DNA of 64,000 nt, from contig CAVWIG010000017.1 of NCBI GenBank assembly GCA_963754945.1, positions 212,623 through 276,622 of the forward strand. The letters are read 5' to 3'. The translations under genes were made by a program, and so were the position numbers. Of this stretch, positions 30,538 through 32,303 are shown piece after piece (the first letter of the stretch is position 1; each line of letters starts with the position of its first letter). Below the pieces are notes generated by a model. The model was not told where the DNA came from, ran no database searches, and saw only the letters and a list, made by a program, of their open reading frames with translations. The DNA comes from Methanotrichaceae archaeon. GTDB taxonomy: Archaea > Halobacteriota > Methanosarcinia > Methanotrichales > Methanotrichaceae.

Positions 30538-31995
30538 ATGATTATCTACAACACCATGAGCGGCAAGAAAGAGCCGTTTCAGCCAATTCACAAGAATCGC
30601 GTCAACATATTCGTCTGCGGACCAACTGTTTACGACAACTCTCACATCGGACACGCCAGGACCTACATAGCATTCGATGTCGTCGCTCGCTACCTCAAGT
30701 ACAAGGGCTTTTCCGTGTTTTATCTTCAGAACATCACCGATGTTGACGATAAGATCATACAGAGGGCTTCGGAGCTAGGCATTGAGCCGGACGCTTTGGC
30801 GCGCAAGTTTGAGCGAAGGTACTTGGAGGATATGCAGGCGTTGGGCGTGACAAATGTCAACCTCTACGCCAGGGCGACAGAGCACATTCCCGAGATCATC
30901 AGCCAGATTGAGCGGCTCGTGGAGTTGGGTTTTGCTTACGAGACGGAGACTGGTGTTTACTTCGACGAATCTAGATTCGAGGACTTCGGGAAGCTGTCGC
31001 ATCAGACTTTTGAGGAGGTTGCGCGCCACAGGATAGAGCCCGATCCGACCAAGAGGAACCCGGGAGATTTCTCTTTATGGAAGAAACGGGAAGACGGGGC
31101 TAAGGTAACCTGGGATTCGTCTTGGGGAAGAGGACGACCAGGATGGCACATCGAGGACACGGCCATCACGGAGACCTATTTCGGACCTCAGTACGATATC
31201 CATGGCGGAGCAATGGACCTAATATTCCCCCACCACGAGGCAGAGATCGCTCAGATGGAGGCGACGTCAGGAAAAAAGCCACTGGTTAGGGCTTGGATGC
31301 ACACCGGCTTTCTCAACGTCAAGGGCGAGAAGATGTCTAAGTCCCTGGGAAATTTCATGACCATAAGGGAAATGCTGGAGAGATGCGATGCCGAAGCTTT
31401 CAGATTGTTCGTCCTCCTTGCTCACTACCGATCACCAATTGATTTTTCCGAAGAGGTGCTGGAGCAGTCTCGAAAGAGCCTTGAAAGAATTCGCCATCTG
31501 ATCAAGGTCATCGAAGAACAATTAGAAACGCCCGGCGAGATCTCGGAAAGCGAAGGTGTCGACCCAATACTGATCAAGGCAAGAGCTGAGTTCTTGGATG
31601 CGATGGACGATGATTTCAATACGCCTTACGCGCTTCGAACCGTATTCGACCTGGTGAGGGATATAAACCGCAGAATAAACGAAAAAAACGTATCGAAGGA
31701 GACTTTAAAGGATACGAAACTGCTGCTGGAGGAGTTCGGCAGGGTCTTCGGAATCAGCTTTTCTTCCGGGTCAGAAAAATCCATAGGAAAAGAAGAAGAC
31801 ATGGCTCGCGACCTGATCGAGCTGCTTATCGAAATAAGGCAGAAGCTCCGCGAAAAAAAGGACTGGCAGCTCGCCGATGAGATACGTAACAGGATGAAGG
31901 AATTGAACGTCGTGTTGGAGGATGCCGAAGGAGGTGGCAAATATACACTTCGAGGAGAGAATTGCCTTAATCGCAAAACTTATAACCTTCAATAA
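30538..31995 (+). CDS. cysS: Cysteinyl-tRNA synthetase
   Basis: MIIYNTMSG start; CGPTVY, HIGH, GRPGWHIED, FPHHEAE and KMSKS motifs. Confidence 0.97.
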   Translation: MIIYNTMSGKKEPFQPIHKNRVNIFVCGPTVYDNSHIGHARTYIAFDVVARYLKYKGFSVFYLQNITDVDDKIIQRASELGIEPDALARKFERRYLEDMQALGVTNVNLYARATEHIPEIISQIERLVELGFAYETETGVYFDESRFEDFGKLSHQTFEEVARHRIEPDPTKRNPGDFSLWKKREDGAKVTWDSSWGRGRPGWHIEDTAITETYFGPQYDIHGGAMDLIFPHHEAEIAQMEATSGKKPLVRAWMHTGFLNVKGEKMSKSLGNFMTIREMLERCDAEAFRLFVLLAHYRSPIDFSEEVLEQSRKSLERIRHLIKVIEEQLETPGEISESEGVDPILIKARAEFLDAMDDDFNTPYALRTVFDLVRDINRRINEKNVSKETLKDTKLLLEEFGRVFGISFSSGSEKSIGKEEDMARDLIELLIEIRQKLREKKDWQLADEIRNRMKELNVVLEDAEGGGKYTLRGENCLNRKTYNLQ

Positions 31996-32020
31996 CAAGT
32001 GTTAATTCGGTGAGCTTAAA

Positions 32021-32303
32021 ATGAGGGATCTATTTTGCCAACCCCGGATATGAACAGCCGAGTTCGAAGATAGAGCGCCTGCCGCCATCAGCAAAGCTTG
32101 TTCTTAAAGTGCTGGAGTCAGGCAGCCTTTTAACGCAGAAGGACATAATAAGAAAGACGTATCTTCCGGCAAGAACCGTAAGGTACGCTTTGAGCAGACT
32201 TAAAGACGAGGACCTTCTTCAGGAACGCTTCTATTTCCAGGATGCGCGCCAGAGCCTCTATGGGCTGAATGCCCAAGCCCTGGAGGTGACGACGACCGCA
32301 TAA
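32021..32303 (+). CDS. Winged-HTH regulator, predicted +1 frameshift at TTT-TGC (32033-32038)
   Basis: Paralog of the 24010 C-terminus. Homology (LPPSAKLV) extends upstream of GTG 32109 with no in-frame start; SD-preceded ATG 32021 is out of frame. Confidence 0.75.

Follow-up and report, generated by a model that had tools for sequence, protein, structure and literature searches.

The Escherichia coli gene for release factor 2, prfB, carries a +1 frameshift site, AGGGGG-UAU-CUU-UGA-C, whose spacer measures 3 nucleotides (nt); such too-short spacing favours forward slippage. In yeast, Ty1, EST3 and ABP140 shift +1 at CUU-AGG-C, and bacterial T-box leaders and leader-peptide attenuation sense uncharged or scarce tRNA. 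Here we describe an archaeal locus with a prfB-like layout. It lies in a 64,000-nt stretch (hereafter the window) of contig CAVWIG010000017.1 from a Methanotrichaceae archaeon, whose genome is a metagenome-assembled genome (MAG) of 54 contigs that is 88% complete. The element in question is a short gene for a winged helix-turn-helix (wHTH) regulator directly behind cysS, together with the 17-nt cassette at its head. An original prediction, made from the letters of this stretch, held that the regulator is produced only by a +1 shift at a Phe codon followed by a Cys codon, and that its output depends on Cys-tRNA; comparative sequence evidence now supports both the site and the Cys-tRNA link. We consider it likely that the regulator can be made only if ribosomes undergo a programmed +1 frameshift once five codons have been read. 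The further proposal, that regulator output is tied to the supply of Cys-tRNA(Cys), we regard as evenly balanced. The finding itself is real, conserved and unusual.

As in prfB, a Shine-Dalgarno (SD)-like element stands a few bases upstream of a CUU or UUU codon followed by U, and the tRNA would re-pair on UUU. A short frame-0 open reading frame (ORF) likewise precedes a main +1 product that has no start of its own, and a slow UGN codon in the A site would serve as the feedback sensor. The two systems differ in several respects. In 61 of 61 ORFs the archaeal A site holds a Cys sense codon, UGY (Y is C or U), whereas that of prfB holds the stop codon UGA. The archaeal spacer is 2 nt long, and the SD-like element would pair, with a bulge, with a longer archaeal 16S rRNA tail (GAUCACCUCC). 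The archaeal site is reached at codons 5/6, directly after initiation, and its product is a wHTH transcription factor rather than a release factor that reads the codon. By analogy, the layout would be that of prfB, the main change being that the A-site codon ends in Y and not in A (UGY in place of UGA).

The yeast sites resemble the cassette in that a P-site tRNA-Leu on CUU slips +1 while a slow sense codon occupies the A site, but they are eukaryotic, have no known rRNA-pairing stimulator, and use a codon that is constitutively slow and not tied to a regulated amino-acid pathway. As in T-box and attenuation systems, expression of an aminoacyl-tRNA synthetase and of amino-acid biosynthesis would be coupled to decoding or charging of the cognate tRNA; here, however, the read-out would be a change of frame that yields a trans-acting factor, not a cis-acting terminator or antiterminator RNA. 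ABP140 and frameshifting at 'hungry' codons are treated in a 2016 frameshifting review (PMC5009743). The passages on Archaea in that review and in the 2013 GeneTack survey (PMC3711429) list only the proposed cases of Mg-chelatase and of haloarchaeal viruses, and the relevant part of a 2021 review of archaeal recoding reports a single -1 frameshift, in fucA1 of Saccharolobus solfataricus (PMC8211752). These cases share with ours that recoding in Archaea was inferred from split ORFs. Unlike ours, those named in these passages are -1 shifts on A-rich heptamers, or viral, with no conserved cellular +1 shift and no regulator among them. Mukai et al. (2017) reported that tRNA-Cys genes adjoin some SepCysS genes, and their passages on this arrangement mention neither a regulator nor a frameshift (PMC5424206). 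Our full-text literature searches, which covered articles without their supplements, returned no description of this wHTH family or of the cassette.

Frame arrangement and conservation of the cassette

From ATG 32021, frame 0 reads ATG AGG GAT CTA TTT TGC CAA CCC CGG ATA TGA and stops at 32051-32053. The +1 frame opens at 32025, right after a TGA that overlaps this ATG, and continues to the TAA at 32301-32303; no ATG occurs among its 92 codons, and GTG 32109 is the earliest canonical start. The encoded protein is homologous to the C-terminal domain of a 197-residue paralog encoded at 24010-24603, with 64% identity over query residues 15-86 (72 residues; E 2e-23). The starting points of the original prediction were therefore sound: the GGTGA motif ahead of ATG 32021, the peptide MRDLFCQPRI that this ATG opens, the lack of a canonical start further upstream in the +1 frame, and the kinship with the paralog are all borne out.

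We searched 41 related genomes by protein similarity and found the wHTH family in 22 of them. Among the distinct short-form ORFs collected in this way, by protein similarity alone, 25 of 27 are headed by ATGAGGGATC...TTTG. We refer to the 17-nt element ATGAGGGATC-NNN-TTTG as the cassette, and its 14 specified bases served as a search pattern. The same frame arrangement is found in the single-contig genomes G028, G032, G036 and G039. The two exceptions are L021, which has an ordinary in-frame ATG and no cassette, and L009 (G023:C132), which combines the variant ATGGGGGATC with a +1-frame TAA just past the shift site and looks decayed. An in-frame start in relatives, which the original prediction took as speaking against a shift, was thus found among the short forms only in L021. 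Another copy, L022 (G003:C50), keeps the cassette but has a TAA within the wHTH (61-codon ORF), and also looks decayed.

In an intermediate locus set, 38 of 45 distinct family ORFs open at ATGAGGGATC, the other seven being five long paralogs with ordinary starts, L021 and L009. The final set comprises 64 unique homologous ORFs with the cassette. Throughout the family, the +1 ORFs open at the TGA within ATGA and share no conserved start of their own. When 22 sequences were aligned from -25 to +70, ATGAGGGATC and TTTG formed an island of identity amid diverged flanks. A search of these 22 sequences over the same interval for conserved RNA secondary structure gave 0 predicted pairs, and for this reason we propose no downstream structural stimulator.

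Scanning a 596-Gb genome collection with the 14 specified bases returned at least 120 sites, most of them chance matches in bacteria. Among the matches listed, at least 15 sites continue into this wHTH in the +1 frame, and L094 adds one. These sites come from Methanoregula, Methanoculleus palmolei, Methanosarcina, Methanolobus, Methanococcoides, Methanosarcinaceae, Methanosaeta/Methanotrichaceae, Methanomicrobiales and Methanocellaceae. When 401 genomes sampled evenly across the phylum were scanned, the pattern occurred at 61 sites in 56 of them and the reversed pattern at 0; 27 of the 31 sites inspected in this sample belong to the wHTH family. The one-base variant ATGGGGGATC...TTTG was found at 5 sites in the 401 genomes, which serves as the chance rate, and none of these lies in the wHTH family. 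The cassette arrangement is not a product of chance.

The proposed shift site and its putative stimulator

The frame-0 peptide begins MRDRFC in 41 of 61 ORFs, MRDRLC in 17, MRDLLC in two and MRDLFC in one, and the frame-0 ORFs end after 6-18 codons. A stop lies directly 3' of the Cys codon in 17 of the 61, and therefore the shift must occur at or before that codon. Codon 4 is CGT in 43 ORFs, CGC in 9 and CGA in 6 (58/61), variation that is synonymous in frame 0 and reads as A, D or V in frame +1. Position 13, which the search pattern leaves unspecified, is C or T in 64 of 64 ORFs, including 25 of 25 in the protein-similarity subset; for comparison, GCN and GTN codons at other places in these ORFs have a purine as third base in 440 of 727 cases (60%). 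Position 18 is C or T in 61/61, and the A-site codon is always Cys (TGT 31, TGC 30). The Phe codon of the cassette is invariably TTT, and Phe elsewhere in these ORFs is written TTC 132 times and TTT 55 times.

For the P-site tRNA to re-pair on UUU once it has slipped +1, position 13 would have to be C or U, whether that tRNA is tRNA-Leu (from CUU) or tRNA-Phe (from UUU). The genome encodes tRNA-Phe(GAA), tRNA-Leu(GAG) and tRNA-Leu(UAG). The free positions of the search pattern behave as the slippage model predicts, and the re-pairing feature of a prfB-type site (YTT-T) is present in 64/64 unique cassette ORFs. Because two same-genus relatives read CTA CTT TGC, and with CTT-TGC also in most Methanotrichaceae, the comparison identifies YUU-UGY as the conserved site and the TTT-T of the window as a local variant. 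The original prediction had stressed perfect re-pairing of tRNA-Phe on TTT-T; the TTTT is present in the regulator cassette (32033-32036), but it is not a conserved feature. Its expectation that orthologs would share a TTT-TGY site likewise needs revision: 25 of the 27 short forms do share a site, in the form YTT-TGY rather than TTT-TGY. Transcriptional slippage was set aside, the T run being only 3-5 bases long.

While the Phe/Cys shift site of the original prediction stands, that description overlooked the SD-like element GAGGGATC, whose invariant position 2 bases upstream makes the site prfB-type. The element is complementary to the 3' tail of the host 16S rRNA, which ends ...GGAUCACCUCCU, also written ...CUGGAUCACCUCCU. 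Folded against the 16S tail of the same genome (ViennaRNA duplexfold), GAGGGAUC is predicted to form 8 base pairs with one bulged A at -9.9 kcal/mol. This value ranks in the top 0.8% of 9142 10-mers of the window, and the initiating SD region is weaker, at -8.2. The GAUC-equivalent of the SD ends 4-5 nt before true ATGs and, in the cassette, 2 nt before the P-site codon, so that the cassette spacing is 2-3 nt shorter than the initiation spacing in the same genes.

The predicted protein product and other ways to translate it

The +1 product matches Pfam HTH_24 (PF13412) with 22.7 bits (cut-off 21.9); MarR_2 (PF12802) remained below threshold, at 21.2 against a cut-off of 27, and PF01047 gave no match. 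We modelled the +1 ORF with AlphaFold2 from a 31-sequence alignment (mean predicted local distance difference test, pLDDT, 80). In the model, helices span residues 21-30, 38-45 and 49-61, wing strands 65-69 and 77-81, and a short C-terminal helix 83-90, with residues 1-10 disordered. The nearest solved folds found by Foldseek belong to the MarR family (MepR 4lll, PcaV 4fht and OhrR 1z9c), with query template modelling (TM) scores of 0.70-0.74, a probability of 1.00 and 11-28% identity; target-normalised TM scores are 0.43-0.63, with 43-63% of the target length covered. A profile search of PDB sequences returned weak MarR/Lrp matches only (best E 0.011) and no close solved relative. Sequence and model together suggest a minimal MarR-like winged-helix regulator. 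It would share with MepR, PcaV and OhrR the wHTH core fold and, by prediction, a palindromic target. Unlike these proteins, it is no longer than about 90 residues, and the dimerisation helices that flank the wHTH on its N- and C-terminal sides in MarR proteins are absent from the 92-93-residue product, which has one short C-terminal helix only. The product is Cys-free in 50 of 61 ORFs and has one Cys in the other 11. The tryptic junction peptide predicted from P0122 would begin DLFANPGYEQPSSK, and in most relatives D-R-(F/L)-(A/V).

Database gene calls for the family vary from 56 to 135 residues and start at ATC, at an internal GTG or TTG, or at a spurious upstream ATG where TGA is TGG. The first of these choices corresponds to the alternative that survives best, although we hold it to be unlikely: no frameshift takes place, the invariant ATC at 32028-32030 is a non-canonical start, and the ATG ORF is a competing or regulatory upstream ORF. 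Besides the invariance of this codon, the database proteins P0006 (MYFAE...), P0033 (MDFAE...) and P0105 (MVFVE...), which NCBI annotation starts at ATC, fit such a reading. The SD, however, is placed for the ATG (GGTGA followed by 6-8 nt) and lies 13-15 nt from the ATC, and a weak ATC would lose out to the invariant out-of-frame ATG 7 nt ahead of it. Initiation at ATC would also leave unexplained the pyrimidine at position 13 (64/64), the invariant TTT, the always-Cys codon, the synonymous CGN pattern of frame 0, and the invariant GGG and TGA before the ATC.

A slightly less probable alternative retains a +1 shift and moves it elsewhere, for example to codon 2, where tRNA-Arg(CCU) might slip from AGG to GGG, leaving the Cys codon irrelevant. 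AGGG is invariant, tRNA-Arg(CCU) is present in the genome, and re-pairing would be possible with one G-U pair. Against this, neither the stimulator nor a slow codon is in place for a slip at codon 2, and the invariant TTTG and the pyrimidines at positions 13 and 18 would have no explanation. The synonymous variation of codon 4 (CGT 43, CGC 9, CGA 6) suggests that frame 0 is still being read there, and the association with tRNA-Cys, cysS and SepCysS, described below, would be coincidence.

Very unlikely, in our view, is a leader-peptide role for the short ORF, with reinitiation or coupling at an internal start, for instance GTG 32109, producing the wHTH. This GTG exists in the window, and gene callers often choose internal starts, but it is GTT in the same-genus relative L004. 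It corresponds to residue 29, at the end of helix 1 in the model, and a protein begun here would lack helix 1 and the invariant PPSAKL. In homologs the first canonical start has no common position or falls past the domain, for instance at codon 69 in L015 and at codon 97 of 129 in L016 (closed genome G039), and the frame-0 stops, at 6-18 codons, have no start codon beside them. Upstream of the GTG, changes in the +1 frame are five synonymous to one nonsynonymous relative to L003 and three to none relative to L004; by this substitution pattern, the stretch evolves as coding sequence in the +1 frame. A stable product initiating at GTG 32109, the other observation that the original prediction counted against itself, thus finds no support in the relatives.

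A pseudogene or an assembly error in the T run, conceivable for a 54-contig MAG with TTTT at the site, is hardly credible given the same arrangement in single-contig G028, G032, G036 and G039 and in 64 unique ORFs, the mostly synonymous substitutions, and the DNA contigs of public run X1 over 31961-32138, which cross the cassette with zero insertions or deletions (the public runs containing the regulator sequence were represented by contigs, with shares all 0.20 or less).

Cysteine genes, candidate operators and the proposed sensor

The window holds, in order, a tRNA-Cys gene, cysS and the regulator. The cysS start at ATG 30538 is favoured because the mechanical ORF start, GTG 30472, falls inside the tRNA gene. 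The tRNA and cysS are probably transcribed together, and once the tRNA had been processed the remaining cysS mRNA would have almost no leader. The other two tRNA-Cys genes of the genome (C20 and C39) are identical to each other. Across 68 family loci (264 kb), ARAGORN detected 25 tRNA genes, 17 of which are tRNA-Cys, distributed over 14 loci; at least two pairs of these loci are duplicate fetches. By comparison, 104 loci outside the family that the pattern scan had also returned (760 kb) contain 5 tRNA genes and 0 tRNA-Cys. A tRNA-Cys gene also lies upstream of cysS in G001 and G003; the 1-kb stretches searched ahead of cysS in G002 and G005 (L184, L186) yielded none.

We further located neighbouring genes by tblastn over 65 cassette loci, most of which reach only 1.5 kb to each side, and checked their identities with NCBIfam. 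The neighbours include cysS in 7 loci, SepCysS in 6, O-acetylhomoserine sulfhydrylase (homocysteine synthase) in 4, a TusA-like sulfurtransferase in 9 and a sulfate-permease-like gene in 4. In L067 (Methanoregula), cysK (466 bits, cut-off 351) and cysE (238, cut-off 211) lie directly upstream of the cassette gene. These associations with cysteine and sulfur genes are seen in several taxonomic orders, although the relatives are not independent samples. The genomic context supports a role in cysteine sensing. SepRS was detected in the present 88%-complete genome, and SepCysS did not score above its cut-off there.

Palindromes at the promoters provide a candidate operator. Only three strict palindrome cores occur in the 64-kb window, and two of them are at the promoters of the two paralogs. 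Of 69 cassettes, 39 have a TT[A/C]AC-N4-GT[G/T]AA palindrome in the 80 nt upstream, mostly at -45 to -36. Strong palindromes are also present in L102, 13 nt ahead of a tRNA-Cys gene that is followed by SepCysS, homocysteine synthase and MetX; in L175, 13 nt ahead of tRNA-Cys-SepCysS; and in L067, ahead of cysK, where the palindrome sits further upstream than at the regulator's own promoter or at the tRNA genes. The regulator would probably bind the TT[A/C]AC-N4-GT[G/T]AA palindrome. A loose form of the pattern was not enriched genome-wide (31 matches, against 76 in a mononucleotide-shuffled genome), and because of this we dropped regulon prediction in this genome and relied on the strict cores of the window and the strong sites of the family loci.

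Further palindromes and promoter motifs were observed. An exact palindrome, TTCACAATCGTGAA, follows directly on a TTTATAA box at G000 C14:52688, upstream of a gene for a 469-residue membrane protein, and may be a target of one paralog. In the Methanocellaceae locus L103 (4291-5398), and in L165 (214-1144), which has a near-identical gene, TTAACTATTGTTAA immediately precedes a 'methanogenesis marker 8' (DUF2099) gene near the cassette gene. The motif TTGCCGC/TTGCCTT is found just upstream of the regulator's TATA-like box (31962-31968) and within the inverted repeat ahead of tRNA-Cys/cysS (30410-30427), and TTGCCNC recurs, by eye, at about -58 in family promoters of Methanotrichaceae and Methanocellaceae; it may be a second regulatory site.

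We envisage the following mechanism. The GGTGA 7 nt upstream would position ribosomes on ATG 32021 for initiation, and the first five codons would be translated as M-R-D-L-F. The P site would then hold tRNA-Phe on UUU (or tRNA-Leu on CUU, in relatives with CTT) while the Cys codon UGC stands in the A site, and GAGGGAUC, 2 nt upstream of the P-site codon, would pair with the 16S 3' tail at codon 5. Were Cys-tRNA(Cys) delivered slowly, the P-site tRNA would slip +1 onto UUU, and reading would resume at GCC in the +1 frame to give the 93-residue MRDLF-ANPGYEQ... protein; fast in-frame decoding of UGC would lead to termination after 10 codons, with peptides of 6-18 residues across the family. Since slippage competes with UGY decoding, regulator output should rise when Cys-tRNA(Cys) is scarce. 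The regulator may then act on its own promoter and on the genes for tRNA-Cys, CysRS or SepCysS and cysteine/homocysteine synthesis, which would close a feedback loop on Cys-tRNA supply. The logic of such a loop would be that of RF2 autoregulation with a transcription factor interposed.

Several points weigh against the frameshift, against cysteine sensing, or against both. The shift, its efficiency, the response to Cys-tRNA and the binding of DNA are all deduced from sequence. The sole RNA contig on the regulator gene (run X15) spans 32045-32262, outside the cassette, and the NCBI gene calls at ATC have been mentioned above. A or V at the first +1 codon, and the preceding Phe, could reflect a constraint on the protein rather than a slip site. 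The counts among relatives come from genomes that are not independent, some loci are duplicate fetches, and some members of the set were retrieved by means of the search pattern. With respect to cysteine, tRNA-Cys is not a rare gene, being present in 3 copies in the genome, and at least one of the cysteine or sulfur genes listed above is found in only 22 of the 65 cassette loci, though the flanks of most of these loci extend just 1.5 kb. No palindrome was found before cysS in the window. Where palindromes do occur, they overlap or directly follow the TATA box at the regulator's own promoter and lie 13 nt before tRNA-Cys, a position typical of a repressor; a repressor that rises as Cys-tRNA falls would give no simple homeostasis unless a ligand or activation is involved.

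Table 1. Coordinates of the regulator gene, its cassette and associated features in the window
Feature	Position	Strand	Remarks
Initiating Shine-Dalgarno GGTGA	32009..32013	+	7 nt 5' of ATG 32021
Frame-0 ORF MRDLFCQPRI*, 10 codons	32021..32053	+	codons 1-5 = putative N-terminus of shifted product
Internal SD-like GAGGGATC, putative frameshift stimulator	32023..32030	+	2 nt 5' of P-site codon; invariant
Putative shift site TTT-TGC	32033..32038	+	P-site Phe codon, A-site Cys codon; T 32036 would be skipped
+1-frame coding part ANPGYEQ...TTTA	32037..32303	+	stop TAA 32301-32303; with codons 1-5 a predicted 93-residue winged-helix protein (P0122)
TATA-like box CTTATAACC, putative promoter of the regulator	31979..31987	+	within cysS 3' end; homologs have CTTATATT at same place
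Palindrome TAACAAGTGTTA, putative autoregulatory operator	31993..32004	.	between TATA box and SD
tRNA-Cys (GCA), divergent isodecoder	30466..30536	+	ARAGORN; ends one base before cysS ATG
cysS (cysteine--tRNA ligase)	30538..31995	+	likely start ATG 30538; homologous L053 fragment matches TIGR00435
Inverted repeat TTTGCCG-CTA-CCGGCAAA	30410..30427	+	upstream of tRNA-Cys/cysS; shares TTGCCGC with the segment 5' of the TATA box in many family promoters
Long paralog	24010..24603	+	N-terminal hydrophobic segment, Cys-rich region, same wHTH; ordinary GTG start, cassette-free
Palindrome TCACGATTGTGA	23973..23984	.	just past TATA-like box, upstream of long paralog

Other genes near the family members were noted as well (Table 1 gives the features of the window itself). 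Divergent to the long paralog, which contains 9 Cys in its 197 residues, the minus strand at 23322-23597 encodes a 91-residue Cys-rich protein with a signal-like N-terminus and no Pfam family; similar small Cys-rich ORFs and long paralogs accompany the cassette gene in L011/L029, L025 and L094. Between the two paralogs of the window (25108-30221) lie a 1009-residue CheB-CheR fusion with PAS domains and a 643-residue ORF (28290-30221) that, from its translation read by eye, resembles a hybrid histidine kinase with two receiver domains. Several neighbours in the window matched no Pfam family. A radical-SAM gene adjoins in 11 of the 65 cassette loci. In Methanoculleus palmolei, NifH-like and nitrogenase-component-1-like genes lie near SepCysS, homocysteine synthase and the cassette gene, and a NifH-like gene stands beside the cassette gene in Methanosarcina sp. 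DH2 (L040 3149-7081; L044 4942-5862).

What the finding may mean extends beyond this locus. According to the relevant part of the 2021 review, archaeal frameshifting rests on one proven case, the -1 shift of fucA1 (PMC8211752), and a +1 site that is deeply conserved and defined by its sequence would add a second mechanism. If our interpretation is correct, the cassette would be the first conserved example of cellular programmed +1 frameshifting in Archaea, the first sign that anti-SD pairing changes the frame of elongating archaeal ribosomes, and the basis of a new, trans-acting class of aminoacyl-tRNA sensor. The family is mis-annotated throughout the databases, and the 17-nt cassette could be used to correct gene callers. 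How methanogens control the supply of cysteine and Cys-tRNA is largely unknown, despite their two routes, CysRS and SepRS/SepCysS. On a proposal that, to our minds, could equally prove right or wrong, methanogens and their relatives (Methanotrichaceae, Methanosarcinaceae, Methanoregula, Methanoculleus, Methanocellaceae and, by database names, ANME-2 and Methanoperedens) would measure Cys-tRNA(Cys) with the ribosome itself: a prfB-like site with a Cys codon in place of the stop would convert a stall in the A site into a +1 shift, and this shift would yield a factor that controls tRNA-Cys, CysRS, SepCysS, and cysteine and homocysteine synthesis. For this branch of their metabolism, the wHTH family offers candidates for the regulator, the operator and the signal.

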